DNA of 64,000 bases, taken from NCBI GenBank assembly GCA_973895155.1, contig OZ316891.1, positions 27,041,154 to 27,105,153 of the forward strand. Direction: 5' to 3'. Below are positions 29,238-64,000 of the stretch, one piece after another. The position numbers and the translations under genes are program-made. Under the pieces are notes generated by a model. It saw nothing but the letters and a program-made list of their open reading frames with translations, was not told where the DNA came from and did not search any database. The stretch is from Marsupella aquatica. Lineage: Eukaryota; Plantae; Marchantiophyta. Numbering within the stretch: position 1 is the first letter of the stretch; each line of letters opens with the position of its first letter.

Positions 29238-29852
29238 AGGACCACTTGTCACACCGCATGCACAGACCAGATACCATTGACCTATAGCTTAACACTCTGA
29301 CTTCAACACAGAGGATATTTACTTAAAATTTTGATGTATGAGCAATTTTGGGTCCAGGGTTTAGGGTCAACAGTACATAACTTATATCCTATTATGCCTG
29401 CACTAAGCAAAATATCCTAATTTAAGAGGCTAGCAAACTCGCATAAAAGTCTCTATTGAAAGACTGCTTTCATGACTGCTTTAACCTGGTGAACATTGCA
29501 ACGTTCAATGAATTAATGGGCCATGTGATAATATGAAAAATGATTTATGCCTCACTTATTTGTCTCAGCCACTATCATAACCTATTTAGGATGTATAAAT
29601 TTCAACCCTTATGACACTGCTTCATACCAATCCTCTTCGAAGAATGCCTGTTTTACATGTCACAACTATTGTATGTGATTCAAATGCATGAAATGTTGTT
29701 GCAGATCTCCTTTGGTGAATCATAGCCACAATTAAAATTGCGGTGTTGGTGGAGAAATTGTATTAGGGGATCAGTTTTGTGTGTGGGCTCAACATACCAA
29801 AAGTATGTGTGCTCTGCATCCTTGTGTGGCCATTCCAATTCATTGCAGTAGC

Positions 29853-29996
29853 AAATGCCTTTGTACCTTAAATGCTAAATATATTTTACTTTCTGTGCAG
29901 TCTGCTAAATTGTAGAGTCTATCTAAATGCCTTTGTACCTTAAATGCTAAATATATTTTACTTTCTGTACAGTCTGCTAAATTGTAGAGTCTATCT
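29853..29996. repeat. 72-bp tandem duplication immediately upstream of the PHD ORF
   Basis: AAATGCCTTTGTACC...GTAGAGTCTATCT occurs twice; also present at ~59920-60062. Confidence 0.9.
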
Positions 29997-30007
29997 CATG
30001 CGCAGGC

Positions 30008-30688: not shown

Positions 30689-31280
30689 AGCTGAACATTG
30701 TACATGCACAGTGCACCTGATGTGGATGTACTATTTTTTGAGATTGCAGAGATTCCAATTTTGAAAAGGAGTTGGGTAGGCGAGTTTATATAGGCAGCAC
30801 TTATCTTGTGCTCTGGCGTCAGTGGTTGGGTACATGCCTATACAAACTTATCCTTACAAGCCTTCTTGGAAGTATTTAGGCTGAGTGGTCATTTTCATAA
30901 ACACTTTCATCAGACTGCTAAATTAAAACAGGACTTCTAAGTTGTAAGCGTATAAATTATCAGGCATGCAATTAATCAAATTGCCCTATAAGTTTGTCAT
31001 TGAATGTATCCTCCTTTACAACAAAATATGTATGTGCCATGACAAGTTGGTTGCACTTCATTTCACCACGGATATGGATTTTGTAGTATATATTCAAACA
31101 ATGTCCTGCATCCGTGCAGGTGCCTAGTACATATTGTTCACATATCCCTTGTACCTATCAAAATCGGACCTGAGCACCAGTGGGCCAGATCAACTCAAAA
31201 AGCAGGAATTTTGTTGTCCTTGTATTGTCAGGTGAACCCATTCTTCCAAAATTCACTGTCATCACGTAGAGTGTGTGTAC

Positions 31281-32153
31281 ATGGAGCCTGGTAAACGTAG
31301 AAAGTGTGACCACCCAGCAGTGTTTACAGGGGTCAGAGCGATTTTGGTCCATGGCCAGCATGGGTTGACCAAAGTGCATTGGCCAACTGTACAGAAACGA
31401 TTCTCTGAGCTCCATGGCACTGTAGTTCAGGACATCACTCCAGAGACTACACATGTTGTTGCAGGGACATGGCTATCAGTGATAAAGAAGTGGTCATGGT
31501 CCTACATGAATTCTGCAATTACTAAGCAAGGCCTAAAAGTAGTTGAGGCCTCTTGGATCACAGATTCCATAGCACATAAGATTGTACAGGATACTGAGCA
31601 ATATGAGTTGTGGGAGGATGAAGAAGCTTCTGCATCAGCTTGGGCTGAACAAGAAGTCTGGGAAGCAAAGGCACGGCTTGCTGATCTCCAATATGGACCT
31701 GTACTCAACAAAGGACAGAGCTCTACAAGGCTGAAGTGTATGTTGGCTGAGGAGACAAAGCAACCAACCCCCATTCTGAAAGGGCTGAGCATGGTATTTG
31801 TGGAGGCAGGAATTGGAGAGGTTAAGTGCAAAGTGTACAAGTCCACAGTGCTTGACCTAGGTGGGACAGTGGAGGAGAATATAACAGAGGACACCACTCA
31901 TGTCATTACTAAGTCATATCCCAAAGCCTGTCGCAAGTTTGGGAAGGGAGACATTCGCTTTTATGTCATGTCCCATAATGTGTTTGTGGTTTCATATGCT
32001 TGGCTTGTGGAATCAGTAGCAGCTGGGAAGCGTCAAAACCCAATGGACTATGATCTTTTTGAGGCCTGGCCACGGAAGGGTCAGGATCCTTACAGAGAGG
32101 ACTATGAGACAACAAGTGAGGAATGGGTCATTAGCGATTCTGAATCAGAGTGA
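31281..32153 (+). CDS. CACTA cargo: tandem BRCT-domain protein (DNA polymerase lambda-type BRCT), ~290 aa
   Basis: Two repeats with F/L.G...V..G, GTV...IT..TTHV and W..DS/ES...Y.L motifs. The second has VEAG...KFGK...YAWLVES..AGK, resembling the plant Pol lambda N-terminal BRCT. Acidic C-tail. Confidence 0.85.
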   Translation: MEPGKRRKCDHPAVFTGVRAILVHGQHGLTKVHWPTVQKRFSELHGTVVQDITPETTHVVAGTWLSVIKKWSWSYMNSAITKQGLKVVEASWITDSIAHKIVQDTEQYELWEDEEASASAWAEQEVWEAKARLADLQYGPVLNKGQSSTRLKCMLAEETKQPTPILKGLSMVFVEAGIGEVKCKVYKSTVLDLGGTVEENITEDTTHVITKSYPKACRKFGKGDIRFYVMSHNVFVVSYAWLVESVAAGKRQNPMDYDLFEAWPRKGQDPYREDYETTSEEWVISDSESE

Positions 32154-32586
32154 GGAGTAGTAGCATCAGTTTGGACACAAGTTTTTTTGTATAAATCAGA
32201 TCATTGAAATAAATGTGATCTTTGAACTAATGTACCTTGTTATGGTTGGTGGCAGTTGGGCTTATTTTACTATTGGCGGATTGTTGTTTCCTGCTGCCTG
32301 GGGGTGTCACTGTAAACGTACATGCAGAGGCGGTACATTTGAGGACAGCGGAGGAGGTGGTGACACCCTCCAACATTTAGGAATTTTGTGTCATTCACTT
32401 GACAATAGGTACACTACTTGCGAACCTGTTTTTTTCTTTTGGGGTGGTTTAGGGTTTGTGAGAATTTAGTACACGTTATGTTAACTCTTTTGGCAGATAC
32501 AGTCAGGGATATATGGAACACAAATACCACCATTAGGCATCCTTGTTCACTGCTGTCCATGACTGCAGAGCTCCCAGCCTGTTACA

Positions 32587-35500
32587 ATGCACCCTGGTCA
32601 CCACCCTCCCCAGACCCAGCCCAGGGCACAGGCACTGCCTTTGCATCATCCCACAAGGATATCACGCCATGATAATAAGCTTTGGCAGCGTGAAAGGTTA
32701 CGAACCAGACTTTCAGGAGCCAGTAGGATGAGATGTCCTTGTGCAATCTGCCAAGGATCCCGTACCAGGGGTCTGAATGAGGTTTGGCGGCATATCGCGG
32801 TTCATGGAAGAGATCCACGACATCGAGTTTGGAATGATCCTGCAGAGGAAGATTCTTCCGACGAGGAGTGGAGGTTAGAATTTGATGCTGCCAATGCTGC
32901 AAGACGGGCAAGTGAGGTTCTGCCTGGTGCATTTGAAAATGTTGTAGCTGGTGGTCTGTGGGTTGTCAGCTCTCCAACGGGATGGTGCTCAGGCAGCACC
33001 ACGTGACGAAGGAATTCATGTGGAAGAGATGGTGAGAGACATCTTCCAAGACTTGGATGCATTTCATGATGGGCTGGACAATGAAGAGGATACGGCTGCA
33101 GATGCAAGTGTGCCCCCTGTCGAAGAGCCTCTTGATGAGTTTGAGATAGGGCAGGAAACCCCTGGGCATGATGGGATGTTTGGCTCTCCCCTGCAAATAC
33201 AGGAAGGCAGGAAGTCTTTGTACCCCGGTAGCAAATGTTCTAAACTGGGATTTGTCATCATGTTCCTGAACATTTGCGGCAACCACAATGTCCCCAACAT
33301 TTTGGTTTCTGAGTTGTTGGCATTCTTGCGAACAACTGTGCTACCAGATGGTAATATTTTGCCCAAGAACATGTACGAGGCAAAAAGATGCATATCTAAT
33401 CTTGGATTGAACTATGATTCGATCCATGCCTGTCCTGATGGGCATGTTCTTTTCAGAAAGGAGTATAAAGAATCGTTGACATGCCCTAAGTGTGGGAAGC
33501 ATAGGTATCGGAACTCAGGAAAGTCTATGGTTCCCGCCAAGGTACTTCGTCATTTTCCACTCATTCCCAGACTTCAACGGATGTTCAGAAGCCGTGCCAT
33601 CTCGGAGATGATGACTTGGGCAACTGACAAGAAAAGTGATGATGGGCTACAACGACATGCTGCAGATTCAAGGCAATGGAAACTCATAGATGAGATGTAT
33701 CCCGAATTTGCTGCTGAGCCGAGGAATGTCAGACTTGGGCTGTCATTGGATGGGGTAAACCCATTTGGAGACAAGAACAACAAATTTTCGTGCTGGCCTG
33801 TAACTATTTTGAATTATAACCTTCCTCCTTGGATGACTACAAAGCGATTTTTTGTTCTGATGGTCCTACTGATACCAGGGCCAGACAGTGCTGTATCTGC
33901 CAACATAGATGTGTTTCTGGCTCCCCTAGTGGAGGAATTGAGAAAGCTTTGGGAGGAAGGAGTTCTCACATATGATGTCCTACAGAGGCTTGGGAGGTTA
34001 AACCCATTCATCCTTAGAGCCATTGTCATTCTGACTATAGCTGACTACCCAGCCCATGGGATGATATCAGGCCAAACAACAAAAGGATATTGTGCTTGTA
34101 CTACTTGTGGGCGCAATGTCACCAGTGAGTACTCCAGAGCCCTGCAGAAAGTGATATACATGGGCCATCGTTGTTTTTTGAAGGCAGATCACCCTTACAG
34201 AGAAAGACAAGCACTGATTGCACACTTTGGCAATGAGATTGAGCAACGTGGACCCCCGGCACGAGTGACCAAAGAGGAGATCAGGCAGTGGGGAGCACTG
34301 AGGGATGACTATATCAAACGAGGGGGCAGGGAAGATGGAGTGAGTGATCCAATAAAGCGATATGGTGTAAAAAGACTGAGCATATTGGACTTGGAGCTCA
34401 AGTACTGGAGGGTAAGCCTCTTGGAGTTGATGCTAATTGGGATACATGTTTTGGTTCAGAGCATGTGCATTCATTTCGAAGAGAGAGACTAAACTTGAGG
34501 CATTTCCTGACGCTTTTGCATTGCAACGATGCAGGAGTTTGAGCCAAGCAAACATAACATTGATGTTATGCACATTGAAAAGAATATTTGTGAGAGTCTA
34601 CTCAGATTCTTGTGTGGAGAGAAAGACACTGGTTCAGTGAGATTGGATCTTGAACAGAGGGGAATGAAACCCCATCTTTGGTTGAGGCCACATGCCCACA
34701 GAGCTGATGTGCTCTTGAAGTACCAAGCGCCCTATGTTCTGACAGACACAGAGTGGGAACTATTTGTGCAGAGGTTGAGTTCTTTGAAGGTTCCTTCAAA
34801 CTATGGCAGTGCTTTCAAGAAGCATATCATGAATAGAAAGCTTGGTAGTATGAAAAGCCATGACTACCATATGTTGATGCAACAGGTGTTGCCTTTATGC
34901 CTGAGGGGCCTGTTGCAGAAGCCTGTTCGTACTGTGATCATGCGACTCAGTGATGTGTTTCGTCGTATTTGTGTGAAGGTTTGGGATGAAACACACTTCC
35001 CACAACTGACAGAAGATATCGCTCAGGTGCTGTGTGACCTGGAGATTTATTTTCCTCCCGCATTTTTTGATGTCATGACCCACCTACTTGTCCATGTTGT
35101 GGAAGAGCTACACCAATTTGGGCCTGTGAGTGCTCGTTGGTTGTACCCTTTGGAACGGTACATGAAGCTACTCAAAGGTCACGTGAGAACATATTACAAA
35201 CCTGAAGCAAGCATGGCTAAAGGTTACATCAAGGATGAGACTCTGGGATTTCTGACCGAATACATAGCACAATATGAGCATGTGAAGACCAGGGTGTGGA
35301 ATTCTGATGAGGAGGAAGGGGTGATAGGTGAAGTACTGGAAGGGGCTGCAACCACAAAGAACCTGACCATATCTATGAGAGACTTGGCACATGACTTTGT
35401 ATTGCACAACACTGTGGTGATGGAACCCTAGATACAGTGAGTGCATACATGTGCTATAATCCAGTTCATGAGCTTAAATGTTGTGTTCGTGTGGTTTTCT

Positions 35501-36319
35501 CCTTCAACCTGTTCATGTTTACCCAAGCTAATGCTGTGTGGTTGTTTGTTTAGGGAGTATGAGTCATTGAAGGCGGCCCATCCCACTGCAGGAACAACTT
35601 TTCCAGGTTTCATGGAGTGGATCAGAGTGGCAATTAGAGAGCATCACGAGACCCACCCAGACATGGATGCAGATGTTTACCTACTGTCTAATGCCCCTAG
35701 CCTGAAAGTGAAGACTTACAAACGGATGAGAGCATATGGGAATCACTTCCGAGTGAAGGATGGTGACAGTGCCTACAGGGTGACGAATGACTGCGGGCTC
35801 ATCACTGTATTTGAGCAACAGAGCCACAATCACGACAGGGCCTGGATGGAGATGGGATATGTGGGAGAATTAGTTGACATATGGGCTTTGGACTATGGGG
35901 CGGTGTCCAGTCCTGTGATTCTTATGAAAGGTTCATGGGTGCGGCAGGATTGGCTTGGTAAGAGGGCTACCATGAAGAGAGACAACGACGGTTTCTTGCT
36001 GGCCAATTTCAGAGGAAAATTGCCCGAATGGTCTGAGCCATTTGTGTTTCCTAGTCAGGTGGAGCAAGCTTTCTTCCTGGATGTGGAAGACTCCCCAGGT
36101 TGGCGTGTAGTGTGTCATAAACAGGCCAGGCAACGTCAGATGGAAGGATCAAACCTTGAGTTTCATTTACACTCTCATAGTGCCTTTGATCGTCGGCGTT
36201 CAGACCAAGTGCCTGTAGTTCATGATAGCGGGGACTTCATTCCTGTGACAAGGGTAGATGCATTTGCTGAAGGAGGCGAATTCAGAGATGCAGATGCCAA
36301 CAGTGTGCCTGTGCCATGA
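32587..36319 (+). pseudogene. CACTA TnpD/Tnp2 transposase (transposase-associated, Transposase_21, DUF4218, DUF4216 domains); introns 34412-34534 and ~35437-35553; frameshift near 32950 and TAG at 35429-35431
   Basis: Motifs CPCAIC..H, IHACPDG, FAAEPRNVRLGLSLDGVNPF, YNLPPW, IDVFLAPLVEELRKLW, DVMHIEKNICES, MKSHDYH, FPPAFFDVMTHLLVH, WLYPLERYM, EPFVFPSQVEQAFF. Confidence 0.95.
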
Positions 36320-36475
36320 GTAATGTGAATTGTTTGCATGGACATTAGTGAGGGGAAGGATGTGTAATAAAGTAATTCTGAAGCAACACAGATGTATGGA
36401 TGGATGCCTGGTGATTGTGGTTGCATTGTGTTATACGGGGTGACCATAGATGACATGTTTTTGTGGTCCAGTAGG

Positions 36476-39400
36476 ATGGAACAGAGTGACACAGAGATGT
36501 GTGAGTATGAAAGGAAAGCTATGGAACAACGAGCATACGTGAAAGCCAAAATCGCAGAACTGGATCTGGAAAAGGATGTGGCTGAATTGTAAGGGAACGA
36601 TTCTCAACTACACCCCTCCGCTGAGTTTGTGTGACATGAATAGTTCAATGTGGCACTGAAATTGTGACTGTATTCTCATATTGGAATGTCGCAAAGCCAC
36701 AGCATTTTCAAAGAAACAAAAGGAGTACGCAAGAAGGGTGACCAGCACTATCTCTGGGCCTGTGCGTCGGAGTGACAGGTTGAGCAAGAAGGTCGTACCT
36801 ACAATGGCAGAATGTGGAGATGACATTGATGCTGCACAGGTGGGTGCAGACACTAGACAAGAAGATGCAGATGATGAGTATTTTCCAGAGGAAATAGATG
36901 AGGATGGGGGTTATGAAGATGAATACATTGCAGAGCAGCCCCAAAAGAAACATGTAAGTAGTTTTCCCAACAAGGTTTTGAGTTAAAAACTCGTGTTTAG
37001 AGGTTTCATATGTTCAGTACTACACATATGTACCTTGCTTAGTTCCTGACATTGTAGTTGGTGATGTGATGCAGCGTCCTGCCAGTTCTGTTTTGCCTTC
37101 GAAGCCTGTGCATGCACCATACCAGCAGGGGGGGCTGACCTCTGATCAAGGTTGGCGAGGTGGTAGTAGTGGTAGATCCCAGGCTGGTGCCCAATACTAT
37201 GGCAGGGGGCAAGCTCTAGGTTATGCCCGTGGTAGAGGCAGAGCAGGTCCAAACCCACAATCTCGTGGGTATGGACGTCCACCTCAACCATGGGGATGTG
37301 AGTATATATCTATATGCCAGTTCTTTGTGAAGGCATGGCACTCCTGAATTTCAGACTGCATATCAATTTTTGACATTGTTTGGGATGTATTGGATTCAGA
37401 CAACATGAAATTCTGTCCACCTGCCATTGCATGCAGATTCTGCCCAACCTGATTGGGCAAATGCTAGTAATGATCAGTTCCAATGTCCACAAGGACAGAC
37501 ATGGGTTGAACCAGGTTGGGAGGATGGTGGTGGGTCGTGGAATGAACAAGGTTGGGAAGGTGGTGAAGGTAATTGGCAGGGATATCAAAATTCAGTACCT
37601 ACAAACGCTGGAAGAGGAGCAAGTAATGTCTGATCTTGTCAGCAATGGAAGAACTCATTATATGTGGAGTCCATTCACGTGGGGGGGACTCTGCACATGT
37701 ATAATGATAGAAAATGTATGTGTGCAGGTTGGACAGTCGAACCATCGACTCAAGTATTCACTAATGCCCCTATGCAGATGCAGCACGGAAGGGGGACAGG
37801 TATGTCGGTGAATGTTCAGTTGTTTTCCTACAGTTTGTACTTAGTTTTCAGTACATATGTTTGCACACACATACCTAGAAAGTGACATCATCCGGCCCCT
37901 GTACTAGGCTGGACAGGTGGTCCAGGGTCGCAACAATTTCAGAGTGTAGTCCCTGCACAGGCATCTACAGGCAGAGCTACAGGTATGTATGTTTGAAGAA
38001 TTTTTCTTGAAGTGAAGCATTGAATGTTGCCGTCATCCATTCTGCTATATGTAGTTCTCAAGCATGAATGGCATTGTATTTTCCCAGGTGGCTTCAGAAC
38101 CCCAGGTAGGGTGAATGAAGGGGTGGCCAATACAACGCCCAGTACTACCGAGAGCAGTGCACGAGGGGAGGTGACAAAGAAAGGGAACGTAAAGTTGAAT
38201 GAGAGACAATGGGTGGATGCTGAGTGTCCTCGCAAGAACCGATGGCATGCTGATTTGAAAGCTGAAGTATTGCGTTGGTTAGATGTGAGTGTTATTAATT
38301 TTAAAAAACAGCATCCAAAAGATTGGAAGACTGTATGTGAAAATGTTGCTGCCAAATGGAATTATGTGGGCAGTGATGATGGCGTGGACATAGGTTGCCT
38401 AGAGAGTACAGCAGGTAAAATTATCAAGCAAGAGAGGTGGAGAATGCATAAGGCTTGGAAGGAAGGTGGGGAGAAGCCAGATATGCCTCCACCAGCCAGT
38501 TGTGATGATAAAGTGTGGGCAAGGTTAGTAGCTTATTTTGTAATAGATGCTTCAAAAAAGAAGAGTTCACAGATGACCGAGGCCAGGTTGAGTGTTCAGA
38601 ACCCTAATCTGACAAGAAGGACCGGCACTGCACCGACAGCTAAACGTTTGGTAAGAATGAATGGCCTAGCTATGTAATTTATGCTACACTATGTACTATT
38701 TTTTAGTGTAAACCCATACATGTAAACTTTGTTTTTTAGTGTACGTTCCCTGAATATTGATCGATAACTTGTGTTTGCCATGCATGTGCAGAAAGCCCAA
38801 TTGGGGCAAAGCCCTTCAAAAGAAGAGTTGAGGGCTGAAATTGTGAACACCCGGGCTCAAGAGGGTGCATCTGAATCCTCCAAGCATGTAAGTTATATGA
38901 GTTCTGATTGGTAATTGAATGACCTGCGTTGAATTTCAGGTGTACACTGTATATAACATTGATTGTGCATATATTGCCCAACATTTCATATGGAGTGATT
39001 GAACCTATACCCCTGTGTCATGTAGGGAGGTGGATCTTCACTTACAGAGATAAGTGGTCGTTTGAAGGCTGTCGAAACATGTCTTCCAGAGATCAATGAA
39101 CGTTTGAATTCATTGACTGACTTGTTCCATGTGAACTTCAAGACATTAATGGAAGCTGTTGTGTCGGTGAGAGATAAAATTGATTCCAATTCTGCAGGAG
39201 TTCCACCATCACCACTTGAGGTGGCAAAGTCGATGCACTCTTCTGGCATGCCAACGACATGTAGGCTTGAAGGTAAGGCCTTTACAACTGTGTGGGATAT
39301 GATTATTAAATGTATAGTTTGAATTGACATTGTTTGTTGAATGTGTTATTTTCAGTAACATATATTGTGGTTGTTGTGTCCATAGAGAATAAGATAGGTG

Positions 39401-40182
39401 CTACAGAGAAGAAGTATGAGAACCTGGCAAATACTCGCTGTAATTTAGAGGAAACAAAGTTGCAGTCTGTACAAGCAACTTGTTTGACAGAGGGCAGTCA
39501 ACCATGTTTGGATGAGGATGACATTGGCAAGGGAGTGGATGATATCAATGTTGGGGCAAATGAGGATATCAACAAGCATGACAATGATACCATTGAGCCA
39601 GATTCATGCTATGTAGATCTTGACTCCATTGCAGAGATAAATGATTTGCAGAATGTATCATTCTCAATGACAGGTGTGCCTCTTGTTGAGATAAATCCAA
39701 CCAAAGAGTTAGTTGGTATGACACTCCCAGGTGATGAACCTGCTACTGAGACAGTCCTAATAGAGGAACCTACTGAGCCTAGCTTCACTACTGTGAAGAG
39801 AGGAAGCATGCGCACACGAAGCAAGTCTGCTGGTGGGAGCAGAGCCACATCAAAGGTTTCATACAAACCTCCAAGAACAGTGCTGGCAGAAAGATCTAAG
39901 GTGGAAGTGGGGAAAGCACCTAATGCTGAGGGACAAAGTGGCTTGTTAGCTGTTGATGAGAGTGGAACACGAGTAGGATTTGCCAGAGTGCAGGTTGGTT
40001 CCACAACGTTCCATGGCAAGAGGATTCCCCCAGGTTATTCAGTAGTGTTAGTCACATTACTAGTGAAACCTAAAGCTGTCCTTCCCATTCCAAACACAAA
40101 TGATGATCCTCCTCAAAAGACACTTGGAGATGCTGCAGGTTCTTTGGTATTATGGCCAAGCAAGTTCATAGAGGATCCATAA
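36476..40182 (+). CDS. CACTA TnpA-like multi-exon gene (exon structure approximate)
   Basis: Series of GT-AG bounded coding segments: EYERKAMEQR..., RRSDRL, G/Q/R-rich low-complexity exons, a Ptta/En/Spm-like W..L..YF...KKKSSQM..AR segment (38089-38650), and a C-terminal FHGKRIPPGYSVV.V...LPIP....TLGDA.G..VLWP motif typical of CACTA ORF2. Confidence 0.8.
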
Positions 40183-40682
40183 CAATGTCATGCCATTATT
40201 TGTTTGTAGTGTGAGTCATGTTATGTAGATTTTAGATGTCAAGAAGCAGTACAAGAATCATGTCCTCTTGGAGATTCATAGTATCATGCATGTGCTTTCA
40301 GTTATCTCATCCTACAGTCATCAATTATGAGTTCCTGTTTTGTCTAAATTACATTGATCACATTGTAAACTATTCCATTGGAATTCAAATGATCTTCATT
40401 TTTTAGCAAGATTGTGATTGTGTTTAATTCTTATGAATGTTTTATGTAGGATCTGCTTATATGATGCTTTGTTTCATGTGGATGTCATTCATGCTATGTT
40501 CATTTCTTGTATTCAATGTGTTATATTTCTAAAGTTAGAACATCAGGTTTCTATGTATTGTAATGTCGAGTGCTCTCTCTCCTTATGAACTATCCCTCTG
40601 TGTTCATTAGTCATGGTTATAACTTGCATGTGAACCTTATTAGTTATAAACATGAGTATATAGAGTCCCAAATGGTTCTGTT

Positions 40683-41037
40683 GTGTGACGCGGGCCAGGG
40701 TCTCCATTGGTCTCTCCTGTGACACTAAATAGTCACACGCTAGTCGTTGTTGAATGCGGGTAAGTCATGTATGTGACTTACGATGTGACTCGCTGAAGTC
40801 ATATTGCAGTCACGTCGAAACAAGGCTAGACTCCACAATAAAGTCACAGATCAGTCACAAATGGGTATCAAGCAAGTTGCAAAGCCCAGTATCAATAGTG
40901 ACTTCCATTTTTTGGTCTCAACTTTTGCAACTCCAAGGGTCACAGCGTGGGTCAAGTCACGTTGAGTCACAATGAAGTCACATGAGCCAAAATGAGTCAT
41001 ATATTGCGGTCTCAGTTCACCTCGGATTCTTCTAGTG
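40683..41037. repeat. CACTA right subterminal repeat array (GTGAC/GTCAC/GAGTCA)
   Basis: More than 10 direct and inverted copies next to the right TIR; the same motifs occur at 22300-22500 and 53370-53540. Confidence 0.8.
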
Positions 41038-52011: not shown

Positions 52012-55000
52012 AAACAGGTAGCTTGTCCTAAGCTTGTCCTAAAATGTGGGGACTAGATCGACCCTGACTCTAGCAACCAACTCTAAAGTTCTTGCTCAAT
52101 TGATAGTCTAGGGGCCAAGTGACCTTGGAACTCAACTTCTATGCCTACTTTGCTTTGCCTCCCCAATGCAAGCTCCTGTACGTGGGAAACTCAACGCAAC
52201 TTGTCTGCTATTTTGGCACAATTTGGTAAGCGAGCGAGATAGCCCTCACAAACCCGAGAACCAATGGCACCCCTAGACCCAACTAAGATTAGGAGTATGA
52301 ATACCTTCTCAAGAACTTTCCAATGCATCCAAGAAGTCCTCCAATGGACTTCCTCTTGAGAAGTTATTGTCATTTCCATTTTACACTTCCTCTTATTGTG
52401 GCGACCGTCGTGGCTCACGACTAAATTGACTCGCCCTTGGCTCCCAAGGAGACATCACTCCCCTTGTATATGCTTCTAGAGACCTACCACTCTCAGGCCG
52501 GATTTGGTCCCCTATATTTGGCCCTCAACGTGGACTCCAACCCCCATGCAAAGACCCCCAACTAAGTTGTTATGCCCGCAAATTTCTAGCTAGACATTTG
52601 TAAGTGAGGTGCCTTAGCCCGTTGTGATCGGGCCAACACAGTGCTCATGCCTAGGCCCTGAGAACCAGTCATCAATTGAGGGACCCGGACAACCTCATTT
52701 GAGCCGCACCGTATCTCATGCTTTCAACGTCCGTTGCGCATGAAGTAAACTTTGTTAGCCTTGGGCCCAAGAGGAGCTCCCACTCAAGCCCTCATAACTC
52801 AAAGTCCATCCGAGGACTAGACTGTCCATCCTTAGCCCAGCCCAGGTTCCATGCCCGATCAACTCTATGCTAGTCTAAGTCCTTAGTGTGCGTCACCAGC
52901 TTAGCGCCTTGCTCATCCTAGTGCAACGTCTCATTGCCCCACTAGTCTCCCTATTCTTAGTCCCCACCAGATGGCTATTCTGGAGGCTTGGACCATAGAG
53001 GAGTTTGGTGCCAAAGATAGTGACGTTGGAGCTATGTGTTAGGGTAGTCAAGTTCCGCGACTGAGTACAGACACTTCTTAAAACAAGAGTTATGATAGAA
53101 ACTTAGAGAGCAGTTATGGCAAGGTTATTTTTTACTTTTTGACATCTCAAATACTGTCATCCCTCTTTCTCAAGACATGGTGATCGAGTTAAAGATTGCT
53201 AAACTATACCTCTAAAATCTCCAATTCAACAAATGTTTTCTTTGTCTTCATTTTATTAATTTTACTATGTTTTGTTTAAGATTCTATTTTCTTCAGGGAG
53301 GTCTGAGTTTCCTCTCTACACCACTCAAAATAGCACTAGAAGAAACCCACCCTTTCTGAGACCACAAAGAACGTGACAGTTTGTCCGAGACCTTCATGAA
53401 ACAACGACTCCAAAGTTGTTGGTGTCATGTTAGTCACACCTTCTTGACTGAGTTTTGGTGAAGTTTCGAGGAGTCATGTTTACAACTTTTAGGGAAGTTG
53501 TAACTATAACTCAGTTAAGGCAATTAGGTTGAAGTCATACAAGCTCTCTACATTAGAGTACAACTTATGAGAGCACAACATTTGAGCCCTTCAACCTTAA
53601 AGTATGGGATCTAACCCAATACATATGATTTTGGATCCCACATAGATTTAATTATAGTCAGGTCATACCATTTAAAACCATTACTGAGTATTCCATCATT
53701 ATTCCTGCCCCCATTTAGACACCATGAAGCGCGCCCCAGCCCCATTCAACTGCAAAAAGGATTTGTCAAAGCTTGCTAACCTAACTTAATGCTTTTTGTA
53801 GTCAATCTCTAATTTTTCTATCGCCGTCTTCTGGTCGTGCCAAAGGCGTGCTTAATTATCACCCAATTTCAGCCTCACATATGTAGGTTGGGTTTACTTA
53901 TTGCCATGCCCTAGAAACCTTCATGTTTCCCATGCCCCCTTCATATATGACAACCAATGCATGGTTCATGTTCAATATAAGTCCAACTTAAATATATATG
54001 ATCAGCTCTTCACTACCCCAACCCTAAAAAAGTGTACTTTTCATAATGGTAATGTGGGGTCATATATACCTCACTATTTGGCCACATTTTCACCAAATGG
54101 GGTGGTTCAAAGTTGTGACTAACCACTCACCCCACATATAACTATTGCGTAAGTCCTTTGGTTTCAAAGGAAAAAACTAATTAGGCAAATCATAGACTTT
54201 TGTGTCTCTTTTGTGAACTAATGTCTCCACTTCAATGTGCGTGAGTGTGCCTTTGGACACAAGTTTAGGGTGCGCGGGTTTTGTTTAACACAGCAATAGA
54301 GTGCAAAGTTGAGTTGAATGTGCGCGGGAACTCGGTTTAGGGTCCATTGTGCTTACGGCCGGGGACATTCATCGTGCCTGAAGGTTTTGTGAAGGGTTTT
54401 GTGCGAGGAGCTTTACGGACTTCACTCCCACTTGAGAGATGGTGATGGCAGGCAGGTGCAGCAACAGCGCTTGATCAAGGCTAGACTTTATTGCGTAAGT
54501 CCCTGCTCGTTGTCTGGATATGTCATTGTTGTCGGGGTCTTCATGCTCGTCTGATTCATCTTCTGCTCTTCGTGGCCGAGAGTTGACTACCTCACTCACT
54601 AACTTCTTGTCCAATGCATACCACAACCCTATTCCTCGTTCTCAGTCTGCGAGTTTGGGAGCTTTGGACTAGAGCACATGATCGGAAGCCTTGGACGAGA
54701 GACGCAGACTCCAATATCCAGCTTGAAAACAAACGGTGATTGATTTTGTCAGGTGAGAAGATCGAGAGCTCTAGAGATGGTGATGGCGTGTGGGCGTAGC
54801 AGCAGCGCTTGATCAAGGTTTGTCTTCTGCTGCCACTACTGGTGCGATTATTTCTACTCTTGGCTTTTCTCGCGGAAACAATAGCTCGGATCTGAGGGCT
54901 ATTGGCAGTGACACTGTTGCACCAGCCCCCGCGGAGCTTATGGGATTGGGAGGTTTTGTTAGTTTCATTCCGTAGCGGAGTGGCAGGGTTGAAGGTCGTA

Positions 55001-57524
55001 GCGGAGAGCGAGTAGCGGAGTTGCAAGGTTTAGGGAGTTGTGACCTTCATTTGTTGTAAATGTTGGTAAGACGCCGTGACTTGACTGGTGTTGTCGAAGT
55101 TTCTTTTTACTTAGGTTCCTTCAAAGTTTCAGCAGCGCAAATTTTTCTAAAAATGACTGTGACTGTGGGCTGCAGCTGGTGAGGTGGAAGGGATTGCAAA
55201 CGCGTTACTAATCTACAACCTTGGGCATGCTATCAACATATATCCAATCATCGAGCACAAAGTCGATTAAACCCTCACAAGGTAAGACCCACTCATTCCT
55301 TTTCTTATAAGCTCTTATTGGGCAAACATCGCTCTTTGCGTATGTAGTTTGCCAGCCAGGCAAGACCCATGATACTGTTCGACTACCACAGACAATCCCA
55401 AGCGGCCAAGTGGTGCTTCTGAATTTCTGTTGTTGAGTTGCGCCTTCCCACATGCCGTAGTCACTACTGCTCCTTAGCGTGCACCTACATAGGTGCTGAC
55501 CCAATGAAGAGAGGGATTGAGCCTTGGTACTGTACTCCTACACAGTCTAAGCTCAGGTGCCTATTCTTCATTTCTTGTTGAATGTTCCATTTTTTTAGCG
55601 GATTTCTGCTCTGCCCTTTTGCCATGGGTCGCCGGTCTGCTGGATGCTATCAGCAGATTAAGAACTAGTCATATCCTAAGTCCCGGTGTTGCAGTGGTGT
55701 CTCCGACCCTAAGATGCCACCTGAAATCATCTTTCTTGTTTCCTGCTGCTACTGATGTATGTATGTTCTCCAGTATTTTTGCTTACTGATTGGTCTCTCC
55801 ACACTTCTTGCTTGACATGACTGTTTTGCTCCTCCCTGTATGAGAACATGCCTTGTGCCCCGTGCTCTGGCGGTGGGGTGGGGGGGGTGAACAGACGACC
55901 TTAAGGTCCACTAAATTTATAGGAACCGTGCAATCGTTTAGCTGATTTTAGCAGCAAGTTCCCTTGCTTTCCCCTATTTTTGCTAAGATCCCTCCCCACT
56001 AATCACATGCATCCTTTACTTTTCTCGGTGGCCCGTGCGCCTGCCTTCCTACTTTCGTTCTTATGGACTTTCCTTAGGTTTTCTTTCACCTGATTTTGGA
56101 CTTTTTGCTCCGGTGGAATCTGTCTTGACAACTTGTGTTTGTTCTAATCGTTAATATCTCAAGAGGGTCGTCAACTAAGCTGGCAGGAGTCAAAGCTAAC
56201 TACAAGCTAGCAAATCCAGAGAATGCTCCCAAGTCGAGTCAGGAGGAAGTTACTAAAACTAGACCTTCACAACTCTCGAAACTGGAAAGTGGAATTCAGC
56301 CTGAGACACGCAGCTGAAGGCCACAAGGATAACTATATGGCCATGCTGTCCCTCATTCAAGTCCAAAGTCCTCTTCAGACTGTCTGAACTCCTATCTGAA
56401 CTCCTTAACTGGATGAAGTCCTGTCTGAATGTGAAGTTCAGATTGGCAATCTCAAATGGCAAGTTCTGAACTCTTGTCTGAACTTCATCCACCCTTCTAA
56501 ACTGGGATTTGTGCTACGTGTATAGACTCCACATTGTTGCTTCTCCCTTTCGGGCCAGCCCTCCTTGTGAAACGTAGGAGCACGATCATGGCACTTACAC
56601 ATAGTCTGACATTCAAAAAATGCTACTTCTCATCAGCATATTTCGAGTAGTTTGCCTGTGTGTTGAGCCTAATTATTTGTTTATTGCTTTAGTAACATGC
56701 ATGGCCAATTGGTTTCTCTTCATGTAAAGGCAAGTTTTTGAAACTTACTACTTGAATTGGTGGTTTGAATTTAGTTAAGTGTTGAGAAATTAGCATTCAC
56801 ACTAACTATTTTTCTTTTGTGATTGAGTTCTCTTTGCTATTGAATGTATTGAATAATTATTTCATCACAGAAATTTTCAAAACAAACACGGAAGCACAAG
56901 GGGGCTGAGGATTGGATATTGAGGCTGAAGACATTGAGGTAATAAATTGGGTGTGGTTTGGGTGACAATGTTAGCAACTGATGCTTCTTCAAGGGAACTT
57001 CCCATGTGCAGTTTAAGGGTTTAAAAATGATTGACTTTGGTTCTTGCTGTTTTTCTTTTGGTGTACTCTTGAGTTTGGTGTCACTCTATCCTTTCCTGTA
57101 GCCTCGAAATAGGAACACACCTGCTTAATGGTCCCCAATTGCCCAATGATTTATAATGACTGTGTCTAGGTGATGTATGCATTGCGTGTTCATTCCAGAA
57201 GAATGAATATGTACACTTTGCACAAACCTGGACAGATTTTGAATGTTATTTATCTGAGTTTCTATTTGTGAGCTCTGACTAGGAGCCTTAACATTTGTGT
57301 TTCTGTGGGGCTGAGCAGAGTTTGGCTAAGATGCTAGATTGTGGCTTGTCTTCTTGCTTCCAGCTTGTGTATATTCAATTAATAGAAGTTGGGAATGAAG
57401 TGATAATTGAATTTCCTTATATTAAGCATCTTCACCTAGAAACTCAATACATAAACTCCAGGAGTCCCTCGGGACATAAAATGAGCCAAATTGTTTCAAA
57501 ATTGGGAACCTGCACCCGCACTAC

Positions 57525-57748
57525 TCAAACAAATGTGTTGGGCTTGGTGGCCTTGTAAGTCGTCTTTAGCTTTCGCGATGGAGGTTGAATCTTGCGGTAC
57601 GTCAAGGGGAACTTGATCTTTGAATCTGCTCTACAGCTCCGTTCAACGTGGTATCACGATATTCCTTGTACATGTTGTGATAACCTGTACGACTCTGATA
57701 CCTCACCCAAATACCGAAGTTCTTAATTGTGGTGGGCTTTTCGAAGAT
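57525..57748 (-). pseudogene. RPL18a: Captured RPL18a exon, copy 2, with a 115-bp internal deletion
   Basis: [38 protein letters not shown].. joined to ..[25 protein letters not shown]. Confidence 0.9.
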
Positions 57749-58298
57749 CTGGTAGACACATTATTCAGCATTTGCTAACTTTGAAACTAGAAGGGTAACA
57801 CATTAAACAACAGAGAAACTCACAACATCCTCCTTTGGTCCTTCAGAGTCTGTACTTTGATTATGAAGTTTGACTGAGTTTCTGTTTACTGAAAGAATGT
57901 GACTGTGTAAGAGTTCCGTTTGGCAGTGGATTGGTTGAAAGCACTTCATGCTAGTGTGTTGTCCACAGCTCTTCAACCAGCTTTCGTCTTCCTTGTCTTT
58001 CACCACTTACGATGACATCAATTCAGCTAAGACCATAGAAGGTTCCAAAGCATCTAACTTGTCAAATCGCATTCTGTTACATCAAGGACTAAGCTGTTGG
58101 GTATCAAAGGAGACAACACAACAAACACGCTGAAAAGACTTCAGGACTGGGTTCAACAAGGTAGTGAAGGTGCTTATAGCCATAGTAAGTATGCATTCTG
58201 TATCTTTCTCTGTTGATGTGAGCTTGTGCATAATGGGAGTTGTAGTTGGCAAGAGTTCCATAAGGCCAAATATGAACAGATCCAAAAGTATGTGTATG

Positions 58299-58337
58299 AA
58301 CCAAGTGTAGAGTTGACTCTTTCTGAATATTGTAGTC
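58299..58337 (-). pseudogene. Ubiquitin fragment DYNIQKESTLHLV
   Basis: 13 consecutive residues identical to ubiquitin residues 58-70. No LRLRGG follows; the upstream sequence is decayed. Confidence 0.85.
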
Positions 58338-58850
58338 TCTTTCTGAATGTACAGTTTGGTAGGGCCAACGCCATGTGATCATGTACTTGCTCTATAAAGT
58401 TCTGAAGATATAAGCATTTTCTGTTAGACCAGGCAACTTGGGAGTTGGTAAGTGTCACCTGCATCTGAGGGGCTACACCGGGGGCATCAGTGGAGGTTCA
58501 CTTGCACAACACGACAGCCAGTGAATTTTCTCTCTAGTGCAACCTGCAAGGTGAGACTTTTGGTCTTTCTGGATGAAAAAACAGGATCTTAATATGATTG
58601 ATATACATGTCCGTCGAGATCATCGGTTTATCACCAAGCTCTTTGTCTTAGGAAACTCATAAACTCAAAATCAAATATGTACTATGCACGTTTCATGCTA
58701 TGTGTATACTATGACCTGTAGTTGGAACCAAGACAGTGAATGGGAACTGATTAGTTTAGGTTGGTTGCTGTTGGCGAGGCAAGTCGACCTCCTGCTCGCC
58801 TTGCTCATCAAAGGACGTGAACAGAGGACATCACAACAAAAGAAACACTT

Positions 58851-59303
58851 ATGGTGAGGACCCGCAACGCTGAACATGTGCGGCTTGCACGCAAGGCAGA
58901 GATGTTGCGCCTTGAGTATGTCAGACTTGGGATCCTTCCAGCCCAGTCTGCATGGTACTTTGAGTACCCTGTTGTTTCCAGTCCGAACAACTATAGCCGG
59001 CCTCTACCTGCTTCAGTACCCTTCTCGACATCCTTGGTATTTGTGTCTCTTGTACATGACCCGCCACAAATTAGGTGCCAAGGGTGTGTGCACAGTTGCC
59101 AATATGACTGTCCTGCCTGTAGGGCTTCTGGCTCAGCATTGGATGACCGTCCTCTTGGATGCCAATTTTTGCACAGAGCACAATGTATCATCTAGAACCA
59201 CTCGCCATCCTGTAGTCTGCCTGGTGATGTTACTTGTCCTACCCTCCCAGACCCCACCACCGGTGACTTTGGTGTCTACACATGTTTGGATCACATGCTC
59301 TAG
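58851..59303 (+). pseudogene. Cys/His-rich cargo ORF, copy 2 (TGG>TAG at 59193-59195)
   Basis: Near-identical to 28788-29237 apart from a premature stop. Confidence 0.55.
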
Positions 59304-60073
59304 AGGACCACTTGTCACACCGCATGCACAGACCAGATACCATTGACCTATAGCTTAACACTCTGACTTCAACATAGAGGATATTTACTTAAAATTTTGA
59401 TGTATGAGCAATTTTGGGTCCAGGGTTTAGGGTCAACAGTACATAAATTATCCTATTATGCCTGCACTAAGCAAAATATCCTAATTTAAGAGGCTAGCAA
59501 ACTTGCTTAAAAGTCTCTATTGAAAGACTACTTTCATGACTGCTTTAACCTGGTGAACATTGCAACGTTCAATGAATTAATGGGCCATGTGATAACCTGT
59601 AAAATGTGATTTATGCCTCACTTATTTGTCTCAGCCACTATCATAGCCTATTTAGGATGTATACATTTCAACTCCTATGACACTGCTTCATACCAATCCT
59701 CTTTGAAGAATGCCTGTTTTACATGTCACGACTATTGTATGTGATTCAAATGCATGAAATGTTGTTGCAGATCTCATTTGGTGAATCATAGCCACAATTA
59801 AAATTGAGGTGTTGGTGGAGCAATTGTATTAGGGGATCAGTTTTGTGTGTTGGCTCAACATACCAAAAGTATGTCTGCTTTGCATCCTTGTGTGGCCATT
59901 CCAATTCATTGCAGTAGCTAATGCCTTTGTACCTTAAATGCTAAATATATTTTACATTATGTGCAGTCTGCTAAATTGTAGAGTCTATCTAAATGCCTTT
60001 GTACCTTAAATGCTAAATATATATTACTTTCTGTGCAGTCTGTTGAATTGTAGAGTCTATCTCATGCGCAGGC

Positions 60074-60754
60074 ATGGCACGACCTAAAATTCAAGCCAAA
60101 AAGCGTGTGACAGAGGTGAGAAACACAGGTGTACTTGGGGCAGATGCTACTAACTTCTCTGCAAGTCAGATTTTCCAGAAGGCAGCTCATTGTTGTGCCA
60201 TTTGTGACGATGGTGGGGGCCTGGTCATCTGTGAGGGCCCTTGCATGAGGCATTTCCACCTCAACCTGGAGTCTGACCTTGCTGCAGAAAACAACTGTCC
60301 AGGGGTGGGCCTCCCATCAACACACCAGGGAGACTGGATGTGCACTGATTGTTTGGAGAAGCAGGCTAAGTGTGCACAGTGTGGAAAGTTGGGGTCCTAT
60401 GAGGGCTCTATTGATGCCCCAACAATTGTTAGGAAATGTCCAGACCATTTTTGTGTGAGATTTTTCTATTTTGAGTGTTTGCCTGCTCATGCCACAGCTT
60501 GCCCACTTCATAGGTGCAAGGCATGTGGTGAGCATGATCATGAGTACTGGACTGACATAGTCCACTATGCTAGGTGTCCCACCATGTGGCACTATCATTG
60601 CCTGAAAGATCGTCAAGCAGAGGGTTATGCTTGTGACAGAGAAATCTATGATCACTCTGCACATGGTGTTGATCGATGGATATTTTATTGTCATCGCCAT
60701 GCCATTGATCGTACCTCGCGCACTCCTGTGAGAGATCACATATCTTGGCTGTGA
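60074..60754 (+). CDS. EDM2-type multi-PHD protein, copy 2 (226 aa; two Cys>Tyr changes)
   Basis: Open ORF of the same length as 30008-30688; FFCFEC>FFYFEC and HCARC>HYARC. Confidence 0.85.
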   Translation: MARPKIQAKKRVTEVRNTGVLGADATNFSASQIFQKAAHCCAICDDGGGLVICEGPCMRHFHLNLESDLAAENNCPGVGLPSTHQGDWMCTDCLEKQAKCAQCGKLGSYEGSIDAPTIVRKCPDHFCVRFFYFECLPAHATACPLHRCKACGEHDHEYWTDIVHYARCPTMWHYHCLKDRQAEGYACDREIYDHSAHGVDRWIFYCHRHAIDRTSRTPVRDHISWL

Positions 60755-61346
60755 AGCTAAACATTGTACATGCACAGTGCACCTGATGTGGATGTACTAT
60801 TTTTTGAGATTGCAGAGATTCCAATTTTGAAAAAGAGTTGGGTAGGCAAGTTTATATAGGCAGCACTTATCTTGTGCTCTGGCGTCAGTGGCTGGGTACA
60901 TGCCTATAAAAACTTATCCTTACAAGCCTTCTTGAAAGTATTTAGGCTAAGTGGTCATTTTCATAAACACTTTCATCAGACTGCTAAATTAAAATAGGAC
61001 TTCTAAGTTGTAAGCGTATAAATTATCAGGCATGCAATTAATCAAATTGCCCTATAAGTTTGTCATTGAACGTATCCTCCTTTACAACAAAATATGTATG
61101 TGCAATGACAAGTTGGTTGCACTTCATTTCACCTTCGATATGGATTTTGTAGTATATATTCAAACAATGTTCTGCATCCGTGCAGGTGCCTAGTACGTAT
61201 TGTTCACATATCCCTTGTACCTATCAAAATCGGACCTGAGCACCAGTGGGCCGGATCAACTCAAAAAGCAGGAATTTTGTTGTCCTTGTATTGTTAGGTG
61301 AACCCATTCTTCCAAAATTCACTGTCATCACGTAGGGTGTGTGTAC

Positions 61347-62223
61347 ATGGAGCCTGGGAAACGTAGAAAGTGTGACCACCCAGCAGTGTTTACAGGGGTC
61401 AGAGCCATTTTGGTCCATGGCCAACATGAGTTGACCAAAGTGCATTGGCCAACTGTACAGAAACGATTCTCTGAGCTCCATGGCACTGTAGTTTAGGACA
61501 TCACTCCAGAGACTACACATGTTGTTGCAGGGACATGGCTATCAGTGATAAAGAAGTGGTCATGGTCCTACATGAATTCTGAAATTACTAAGCAAGGCCT
61601 AAAAGTAGTTGAGGCCTCTTGGATCACAAATTCCATAGCACATAAGATTGTACAGGATACTGAGCAATATGAGCTGTGGGAGGATGAAGAAGCTACTGCA
61701 TCAGCTCTGGCTGAACAAGAAGTCTGGGAAGCAAAGGCACGGCTTGCTGATCTCCAATATGGACCTGTACTCAACAAAGGACAGAGCTCTACAAGGCTGA
61801 AGAGTATGTTGGCTGAGGAGACGAAGCAAGCAACCCCCATTCTGAAAGGGCTGAGCATGGTATTTGTGGAGGCGGGAATTGGAGAGGTTAAGTGCAAAGT
61901 GTACAAGTCCACAGTGCTTGACCTAGGTGGGACAGTGGAGGAGAATATAATAGAGGACACCACTCATGTCATCACTATGTCATATCCCAAAGCTTGCCGC
62001 AAGTTTGGGAAGGGAGACATTCGCTTTTATGTCATGTCCCATAATGTGTTTGTGGTTTCATATGCTTGGCTTGTGGAATCAGTAGCAGCGCGCTGGGAAG
62101 CGTCAAAACCCAATGGACTATGATCTTTTTGAGGCCTGGCCACGGAAGGGTCAGGATCCTTACAGAGAGGACTATGAGACAACAAGTGAGGAATGGGTCA
62201 TTAGCAATTCTGAATCAGAGTGA
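61347..62223 (+). pseudogene. Tandem BRCT cargo gene, copy 2 (CAG>TAG at 61494; +4 frameshift near 62090)
   Basis: Aligns to 31281-32153 with two lesions. Confidence 0.85.
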
Positions 62224-62521
62224 GGAGTAGTAGCATCAATTTGGACACAAGTTTTTTTGCATAAATCAGATCATTGAAATAAATGTGATCTTTGAACTAA
62301 TGTACCTTGTTATGGTTGGTGGCAGTTGGGCTTATTTTACTGTTGGCGGATTGTTGTTTCCTATTGCCTGGGGGTGTCACTGTAAACGTACTGGGTGGGC
62401 TCAAATCTTGGCGGCAGAATTTGGTGGGTATGTTGCCTTTCCTAGATCAATAGGCGCTATTACGGCTCCTCCTCCGGGTTGCCATATGGCTGGCCACAGT
62501 TAGGACTCTCCTGCATGGGTT

Positions 62522-62947
62522 GTGCTAAAACATTTCTTGGCACCGCCCGAGGATGCAAGAGACGCTGAATCTATCATGAATGAGGATGCACAGTCTGAAG
62601 TGGACATCTACTTTTCAGCAGATGAGTTAGACAAGCCCGATGTTGTAGGTGGTTCCTTGTTGCCTGATTTGGCAGATGATATAGTTCTTTCACATGTCTG
62701 GCCGAGGGTTCTTGTGGTGTCGTGTGCACAAGATATCTGCAAATATAGACAAATTAATACACGGTGGAGGGACTTGGTAGCAACTTGCCCCCAGTGGAGG
62801 GCATTGCATCCACTGCTTGTAGGCACGGATGCAAGACCCCCATGGCATGAGCAGGGTTTAGACCTTGATGATTTAATGTACATGCCTGAGTACCTGAGGT
62901 CTGAGTGGCATCGAGAACAGGGTTGGTACCCATATCTCACCTGGTAA
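62522..62947 (+). CDS. CACTA cargo: F-box domain protein (original ORF may start at ~62300, with an in-frame TAG at 62501)
   Basis: LLPDLADDIVLSHVWPRV...KYRQINTRWRDLV fits the plant F-box consensus LIPGLPDDI...C..RV...R.V.KRWR.LV. ORF 62285-62503 is in the same frame. Confidence 0.72.
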   Translation: MLKHFLAPPEDARDAESIMNEDAQSEVDIYFSADELDKPDVVGGSLLPDLADDIVLSHVWPRVLVVSCAQDICKYRQINTRWRDLVATCPQWRALHPLLVGTDARPPWHEQGLDLDDLMYMPEYLRSEWHREQGWYPYLTW

Positions 62948-63293
62948 TAAGGTGAGATATCTAATACCGCTCTCACACCTGTGCCTATGACTATACATGA
63001 TTGGACTCTGATATGGTCATGGGTGTACATGCAGAGGTGGTACATTTGAGGACAGCGGAGGAGGTGGTGACACCCTCGAACATTTAGGAATTTTGTGTCA
63101 TTCACTTGACAATAGGTACACTACTCGCGAACCTGTTTTTTTCTTTTGGGGTGGTTTAGGGTTTGTGAGAATTTAGTACACGTTATGTTAACTCTTTTGG
63201 CAGATACAGTCAGGGATATATGGAACACAAATACCACCATTAGGCATCCTTGTTCATTGCTGTCCATGACTGCAGAGCTCCCAGTCTGTTACA

Positions 63294-64000
63294 ATGCACC
63301 CTGGTCACCACCCTCCCCAGACCCAACCCAGGGCACAGGCACTGCCTTTGCATCATCCCACAAGGATATCACGCCATGATAATAAGCTTTGGGAGCGTGA
63401 AAGGTTACAAACCAGACTTTCAGGAGCCAGTAGGATGAGATGTCCTTGTGCAATCTGCCAAGGATCCCATACCAGGGGTCTGAATGAGGTTTGGCGGCAT
63501 ATCGCGGTTCATGGAAGAGATCCACGACATCGAGTTTGGAATGATCCTACAGAGGAAGATTCTTCCGACGAGGAGTGGAGGTTAGAATTTGATGTTGCCA
63601 ATGCTGCAAGATGGGCAAGTGAGGTTCTGCCTGGTGCATTTGAAAATGTTGTAGTTGGTCTCTGTGGGTTGTCAGCTCTCCAACGGGATGGTGCTCAGGC
63701 AGCACCACGTGACAAAGGAATTCATGTGGAAGAGATGGTGAGAGACATCTTCCACGACTTGGATGCATTTCACGATGGGCTGGACAATGAAGAGAATACG
63801 GCTACAGATGCAAGTGTGCCCCCTGTCGAAGAGCCTGTTGATGAGTTTGAGATAGGGCAGGAAACCCCTGGACATGATGGGATGTTTGGCTCTCCCCTGC
63901 AAATACAGGAAGGCAGGAAGTCTTTGTACCCCGGTAGCAAATGTTCTAAACTAGGATTTGTCATCATGTTCCTGAACATTTGCGGCAACCACAATGTCCC
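63294..64000 (+). CDS. CACTA transposase N-terminus, copy 2 (open to the window end)
   Basis: ATG at 63294 reads without a stop through CPCAIC...VVVGLCGLSALQRDG...LYPGSKCSKLGF; it lacks the frameshift seen in copy 1. Confidence 0.9.
   Translation, partial: MHPGHHPPQTQPRAQALPLHHPTRISRHDNKLWERERLQTRLSGASRMRCPCAICQGSHTRGLNEVWRHIAVHGRDPRHRVWNDPTEEDSSDEEWRLEFDVANAARWASEVLPGAFENVVVGLCGLSALQRDGAQAAPRDKGIHVEEMVRDIFHDLDAFHDGLDNEENTATDASVPPVEEPVDEFEIGQETPGHDGMFGSPLQIQEGRKSLYPGSKCSKLGFVIMFLNICGNHNV

Follow-up and report, generated by a model that had tools for sequence, protein, structure and literature searches.

The window, the 64,000-nucleotide stretch of contig OZ316891.1 of Marsupella aquatica analysed here, is plant-type DNA full of mobile elements. 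The sole clear host gene that we saw in it is a linker histone H1 gene (10234-10986, minus strand; Pfam E 8e-18). Remains of a Ty3-type retrotransposon with reverse transcriptase and integrase frames lie at 143-5952, where two long ORFs after these frames (3641-4375 and 4336-5952) have no Pfam family above cut-off, and a zf-RVT fragment of a non-LTR retrotransposon (Pfam) lies at 42339-42953 on the minus strand. A Copia-type LTR retrotransposon at 44410-51083 inserted very recently, since its 170-bp LTRs are 99.4% identical. The features that concern us belong to two copies of a CACTA element:

22270..41037, plus strand: CACTA (En/Spm) element copy 1, 18.8 kb, without the F-box-like gene
28788..29237, plus strand: Cys-rich ORF of copy 1, no known family, open
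30008..30688, plus strand: NSD-like PHD-finger gene of copy 1
31281..32153, plus strand: tandem-BRCT gene of copy 1, open
32318..32321, no strand: deletion junction in copy 1, a single GTAC
53334..64000, plus strand: CACTA element copy 2, left end CACTAGAAGAA at 53334, continuing past the window end
58851..59303, plus strand: Cys-rich ORF of copy 2, with a stop at codon 114
60074..60754, plus strand: NSD-like PHD-finger gene of copy 2, two Cys lost
61347..62222, plus strand: tandem-BRCT gene of copy 2, with a stop at codon 50 and a 4-bp insertion
62392..63028, no strand: 637-bp segment present in copy 2 and deleted from copy 1
62430..62947, plus strand: F-box-like accessory gene, ~172 codons, read as a single exon; broken here by a stop codon (62451-62453) and the loss of one base at 62521
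62430..62521, plus strand: predicted N-terminal hydrophobic/amphipathic helix (Kyte-Doolittle 19-residue maximum 1.64), a minority version in the family
62501..62503, plus strand: TAG of the initial annotation, polymorphic, and out of the gene's frame when that is read from other copies
62546..62656, plus strand: acidic linker, low-confidence in the model, with a YFSADE-type motif common to homologues
62657..62797, plus strand: divergent F-box-like domain, 47 aa, ~5 residues beyond the Pfam model length
62798..62944, plus strand: conserved C-terminal tail, 49 aa, candidate target-binding part
63291..64000, plus strand: 5' part of the TnpD-type transposase gene of copy 2, immediately 3' of the F-box-like gene (Pfam Transpos_assoc E 6e-05)

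Copy 1 runs from CACTAGAAGAA to TTCTTCTAGTG, CACTA-type ends at 22270 and 41037, and has CAC on both sides, a 3-bp target duplication; the right end of copy 2 lies outside the window. The transposase of copy 1 is TnpD-type (Pfam Transposase_21, E 1e-69; DUF4218, E 2e-28; DUF4216), and a TnpA-like region follows downstream in the element. Terminal inverted repeats beginning CACTA/G, the 3-bp duplication and the TnpD-type transposase place copy 1 in CACTA/En-Spm. In its ends, target duplication, transposase and TnpA-like region, the element is like other members of this superfamily (Transposase_21, DUF4216, DUF4218, Transposase_24), but it differs from them by four small genes ahead of the transposase, one of which is F-box-like. 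From 56145 onward copy 2 is 95-98% identical to copy 1. The left ends (22270-26380 and 53334-56145) are 75% alike over 200 bp only and then unalignable; unlike left ends next to near-identical interiors likely reflect exchange between subfamilies. A nested CACTA-like piece of 1.9 kb at 23205-25091 matches at 13 of 14 terminal bases and has no matching target duplication.

The accessory genes are arranged before the transposase in the order Cys-rich, PHD, tandem BRCT and, last of the four, F-box-like. Pfam BRCT is found in two stretches of the BRCT gene (E 2e-13), and the PHD gene resembles PHD-1st_NSD (E 5e-05) and PHD_NSD (E 8e-04), both under the Pfam cut-off, as well as the AIRE and NSD2 PHD fingers (E 0.003-0.03). 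Between copies, pN/pS is 0.46 for the Cys-rich, 0.58 for the PHD and 0.38 for the BRCT gene, each from few sites. Each of the three genes has an open frame in copy 1 and is damaged in copy 2. In copy 1 one surplus base near 32953 shifts the transposase frame; both copies are dead or crippled. Immediately before the PHD gene, both copies have a 72-bp tandem duplication (29853-29996 and 59920-60062). Acceptor-like sites ahead of the PHD, BRCT and transposase ORFs hint at alternative splicing from one leader. The interest may lie more in the complete four-gene cassette than in the F-box-like gene alone. Transitions between the two copies number 19 at 112 CG positions, 37 at 355 CHG positions and 26 at 1286 CHH positions. 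An excess at CG and CHG is the pattern of methylated elements, and because the differences concentrate there, both window copies were probably methylated.

The initial annotation had described 62392-63028 as absent from copy 1 with a lone GTAC at the junction, and self-BLAST of the window bears this out: 28312-32321 aligns with 58373-62391 at 96.7%, and 32318-33294 with 63025-64000 at 97.6%. The GTAC microhomology is exactly 4 bp, standing at 62388-62391 and 63025-63028 in copy 2 and once in copy 1, and a 4-bp match is expected at ~2% of random junctions. The segment was also correctly taken to have been deleted from copy 1 rather than gained by copy 2, because contigs of the family hold the F-box part and show several deletions. 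Insertion into copy 2 was ruled out, as the segment occurs only once in the window, its two ends do not match each other, and the family has it.

These family contigs come from six of the seven public runs that contain the stretch (X1-X5 and X7, with X6 left out); contig depth in them is not copy number, run types are mostly unrecorded, and one run may be the window's own source. The F-box part (62584-62935) was covered in 4 of 4 runs of one comparison, at a depth close to that of the flanks in most bins. The contigs carry it inside element DNA, which upholds the earlier assignment of the gene to a transposon family, and in an X4 contig record spanning 62906-63026 the 3' end of the gene is continuous with downstream element DNA. 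The joint of copy 1 is present in X2, X4 and X5, with a loose end at that place in X1. In X4 the depth of this joint is 2574, versus ~3400 on the left flank, and therefore the deletion form itself has multiplied.

At least three distinct deletions in the family remove the F-box: 62387/63025, ~62390/62862 (X1, X5, X7) and 62412/62951 (X1). The starts of at least three fall within ~25 bp of one another, at 62388-62414, each deletion eliminating the F-box, and this clustering may mean that the DNA breaks readily here or that selection acts against the gene. Given the three deletions, the F-box-like gene is dispensable in cis, and its repeated loss could signal little usefulness. The gene might accordingly be seen as a captured host F-box gene or fragment that is functionless for the element, or unable to bind SKP1, and that is decaying. 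Breakage in copy 2, deletion from copy 1 and the three deletions in the family all speak for such decay, and Drosophila telomeric elements are described in the accessible part of PMC13534243 as having captured F-box fragments of 140-235 bp.

What the intact gene encodes depends on its reading frame. In the window copy, an open frame at 62504-62944 contains an acidic stretch and then an F-box-like stretch, with the TAG at 62501-62503 in the same frame. The initial annotation took this TAG for an in-frame break between the F-box and an upstream segment containing His and Cys. The TAG is indeed in the frame of 62504-62944, but it is polymorphic, and the upstream part is in another frame. The change A62502T was found at about half depth in 3 of 3 covering runs (1440/2986 in X1, 245/445 in X3 and 305/586 in X4), so the TAG is not fixed in all copies. 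An extra base behind 62521 was present in 3 of 3 covering runs (2213/3978 in X1, 419/445 in X3 and 560/586 in X4), and loose ends of X1 at 62522 also show it. T62451C occupies the entire depth in 4 of 4 runs in each of two run comparisons. Once the extra base and T62451C are taken into account, translation of the upstream part follows the frame set by ATG 62430; the 62451 stop and the missing base at 62521 are peculiar to copy 2.

The N-termini of homologues were scored against the same frames. P0004 (170 aa, 60% identity, the best homologue) and P0006 start at the same position with similar sequence, and their N-termini score z 4.5 and 4.4 when compared with the frame of ATG 62430, versus z 0.9 and 0.4 with that of the initial annotation. 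Among 13 N-termini scored, P0004, P0006 and P0019 (cluster mate of P0006) prefer the 62430 frame (p<=0.005), as does P0008 (p 0.03); P0005 weakly prefers the frame of the initial annotation (p 0.04), P0007 and P0018 prefer the third frame (p ~0.01), and six are uninformative. A synonymous test on the upstream part, run without the stop site and a triple change at 62461-62463, failed to separate the frames (4/9 versus 3.1 expected, and 2/9 versus 1.9). The run variants and the homologue N-termini rule out a single frame of His/Cys segment, TAG and F-box (P0003). The His/Cys segment is an off-frame reading, and the F-box, which had been placed at the C-terminus, is followed by 49 residues even in that frame, where it occupies residues 52-98 of 147. 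Rebuilding the ORF from other copies, as had been suggested, restores a gene that starts at 62430 and encodes ~172 aa, but not the architecture first described, which is an artefact of the frameshift in copy 2.

The product of the intact gene would thus be a protein of ~172 aa in which a hydrophobic/amphipathic helix is followed by an acidic linker, then by the F-box-like domain at the centre and last by the tail of 49 aa. The depth over 62430-62521 is far under that of the F-box part, and most of the depth joins other sequence at 62577, as seen in loose ends only. The ATG at 62576 is mostly particular to copy 2, and X3 and X7 contain a linker variant that is 36 nt shorter and in-frame.

The 147-aa window peptide has no Pfam F-box match at E<=5, and a 51-aa window piece alone gives F-box at E=0.11. 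Among aligned family members, PF00646 is matched by 14/42 and PF12937 by 12/42 at E<=0.5, all weak matches, and P0007 alone among the 16 closest homologues exceeds the cut-offs of both. One homologue, P0015 of Riccia sorocarpa, is labelled an F-box protein in UniRef and is the single annotated liverwort gene among them. In the ESM Atlas, an F-box cluster is the first match for P0002 (0.93) and the third for P0001, two results that come from the same method and hence are not mutually independent; the Atlas clusters matched are Streptophyta-dominated. When family profiles were compared with PDB sequences, FBXL5 ranked first (E 0.05-0.1).

A structural model built from 42 sequences has a pLDDT of ~90 across residues 51-100 and contains a predicted three-helix F-box fold of ~40-50 residues; a first model from a 2-sequence alignment had a pLDDT of 36 and was discarded. 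VIA-align against 48,161 chains gave 39 rows, all at Z 2-3, of which 15 are SKP1/F-box entries by title, and 10 of these 15 are restricted to model residues 44-112. The F-boxes of Skp2, FBXL10, FBXL17 and FBH1 (1ldk, 1fs1, 6bva, 6w66, 9xzj) align over 40-42 residues at an rmsd of 2.3-2.6, with Z only 2.1-2.3. Foldseek with the 42-sequence model returned no match at E<=0.001. The domain contains an insertion of ~5 residues; at a position that is Pro in most close homologues, the window copy carries Ala. The motif with an acidic stretch before it, as first described, therefore stands as a divergent F-box to which homologues and fold point, although Pfam finds no F-box in the window peptide. The call is made because homologues and fold agree, not because of the peptide's own Pfam score. 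We conclude that the segment is best modelled as encoding a divergent F-box; every signal is weak, yet all are mutually consistent.

In the tail, no Pfam family was found above cut-off, nor any LRR, WD40 or Kelch substrate-binding domain, and its 49 aa are very few for a domain that binds substrates. Pfam matches to N36 and phage lambda N are chance likeness over 17-28 residues. A C-terminal substrate domain of known type is not required of F-box-only proteins.

A search at E<=1e-3 found 16 standalone homologues, 100-243 aa in length, and a profile search gave 25 matches of 95-279 aa. Homologues at 35-60% identity share the same layout, and many have a hydrophobic N-terminal stretch. In the eight closest (P0002 and P0004-P0010) the tail is 46-53 aa long and conserved, with a shared motif, and among close homologues it is conserved as strongly as the F-box. 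A tight, more distant group (P0018 and P0034-P0054), mostly of ~240 aa and on many short metagenome contigs, has the same F-box-like core, with a hydrophobic helix at the N-terminus and a Cys/acidic tail that is longer. A search for a longer fused homologue of 259-2000 aa found none, which is weak evidence. Scans of metagenomes, viral collections and prokaryote collections gave no homologue context beyond L001, the sole homologue locus retrieved, whose 1090 bp hold no transposase.

The substitutions in the family indicate whether the gene has been maintained. Among those listed in 62522-62944, 18/41 are synonymous versus 10.8 expected when the same base changes are placed at random (p 0.009), and none creates a stop; because the variants listed are only the best-supported ones, with 59 and 4 more beyond the lists, the synonymous excess is approximate. 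The excess lies in the F-box and tail (10/17 versus 4.2 expected, p 0.002), and the linker has none (8/24 versus 7.0 expected). Since the listed variants of the F-box and tail are mostly synonymous, the gene was under selection, and the substitution pattern shows purifying selection on F-box and tail in the family.

This bears on whether the gene is a captured and functionless one. Pfam scores below threshold fit that explanation, as does the annotated liverwort gene among the homologues. A Pack-type capture would be a neutral gene fragment, whereas here we find a whole ORF, with start, domain and stop, and a synonymous excess (p 0.002-0.009) free of stops among the 41 listed variants; the layout is moreover kept in homologues at 35-60% identity. 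In copy 2 the remaining accessory genes are likewise broken, as is the transposase in copy 1, so that the decay reflects dead copies, not a dead gene. We therefore regard a functionless captured gene as unlikely, though it is the least unlikely of the alternatives to the reading that we set out next.

As a general rule, an F-box binds SKP1 and the C-terminal part captures the substrate (PMC3588083, in the sections available). Intact copies of the element may encode an SCF adaptor of this kind, with a central F-box on host SKP1 and a conserved tail that recruits a target, and we put the chances for and against this reading at about equal. It makes a fair working model because the F-box-like domain, the family membership and the purifying selection are in its favour. 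Intact element copies would make a small protein whose F-box docks on host SKP1, and the short conserved tail would deliver a target to the SCF ubiquitin ligase; the N-terminal helix may have a membrane or partner-binding role. Candidate targets are a host chromatin, silencing or DNA-damage protein, or a protein of the element itself. If the adaptor acts in trans, deletion derivatives could keep multiplying without the gene. Copy 1 lost the gene by a microhomology deletion, and in copy 2 the stop and the 1-bp loss inactivated it.

The tail also bears on whether a substrate is needed at all. A protein that binds SKP1 without a substrate could titrate SKP1, possibly at a membrane via the helix, or protect itself from degradation. 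Just 46-53 residues follow the F-box in close homologues and many homologues have the hydrophobic N-terminal stretch, both of which would suit such a protein, and polerovirus P0 is stabilised by SKP1 binding according to the accessible portion of PMC6593998. A pure decoy would not need a conserved tail, however, whereas close homologues keep theirs as well conserved as their F-box; we consider a decoy or self-stabiliser improbable.

A special case of the SCF adaptor is the anti-silencing factor that the initial annotation had in mind, which would have an Argonaute, a methyltransferase or another silencing protein degraded and so protect the element. P0 is the precedent: likewise a small protein of a genetic parasite, it suppresses silencing and has its F-box-like region at the centre, with neither LRR nor WD40 repeats (PMC3588083, as available in part). 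The neighbouring genes are chromatin-reader-like, and the family is very abundant in the compared runs. Clink, which had been cited as a second anti-silencing F-box protein, is described in the accessible text of PMC3588083 as acting on retinoblastoma proteins. For P0 and Clink, SKP1 binding and targets are proven, whereas the window protein is known from its sequence and a predicted fold, and Pfam, homologue and structure-alignment searches gave no match to P0, Clink or silencing-related proteins. The window copies were, moreover, probably methylated, as judged from the enrichment of differences at methylatable sites; broad anti-silencing is described as rare among plant transposons (PMC12973397, in the part available), and even in P0 the main effect of SKP1 binding is to stabilise the protein (PMC6593998, same portion). 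Although the SCF-adaptor idea is plausible, an anti-silencing role is a conjecture, and a rather improbable one.

The known systems closest to this gene each differ from it. A survey of 1007 plant genomes has, in the accessible part of its Table S6, no F-box or PHD row and one BRCT row for CACTA (775 clusters), and lists F-box in 3 and F-box-like in 1 of 1846 MULE clusters; its main text, as available, is without mention of F-box (PMC12973397). The MULE F-box is also an accessory protein of a TIR transposon, but of another superfamily and given as domain counts only (same source). The giant Plavaka/EnSpm elements of the red alga Bostrychia (PAG1-3) and VANC of VANDAL likewise combine an EnSpm type of 17-19 kb with accessory genes thought to act on chromatin; the Plavaka/EnSpm cassettes differ in holding methylase/SET and ParB/oxygenase genes, and the term F-box is absent from the available part of that preprint (10.1101/2025.02.11.637652). 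The F-box A2 genes of Caenorhabditis also link F-boxes to DNA transposons, but in the reverse direction, host F-box genes having captured a Mariner HTH (PMC12062965, in the text accessible). The term F-box is absent from the main texts of PMC13547354 and PMC12730594, and the accessible part of PMC7829749 holds nothing relevant. Our literature search, which extended to neither subscription journals nor Repbase, found no paper on a CACTA-encoded F-box gene.

At its most far-reaching, the proposal would be that bryophyte-type CACTA elements encode a mini F-box SCF adaptor, with a PHD-BRCT-F-box cassette and an N-terminal helix, that destroys a host silencing or genome-surveillance protein; it would be a counterpart of P0, shed repeatedly by derivatives that exploit the adaptor in trans. 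We offer this as a speculation and hold it improbable. To our knowledge, functions have been assigned to few transposon accessory proteins, and the counter-defences known so far act via DNA binding or small RNAs. Should SKP1 not be bound, the gene would be just another accessory gene in a large CACTA element. The small size of the protein, the intact alleles and the natural deletion derivatives make its role directly testable. A selected F-box-like gene in so abundant a CACTA family points to the possibility that a transposon, like viruses, directs protein degradation in its host.
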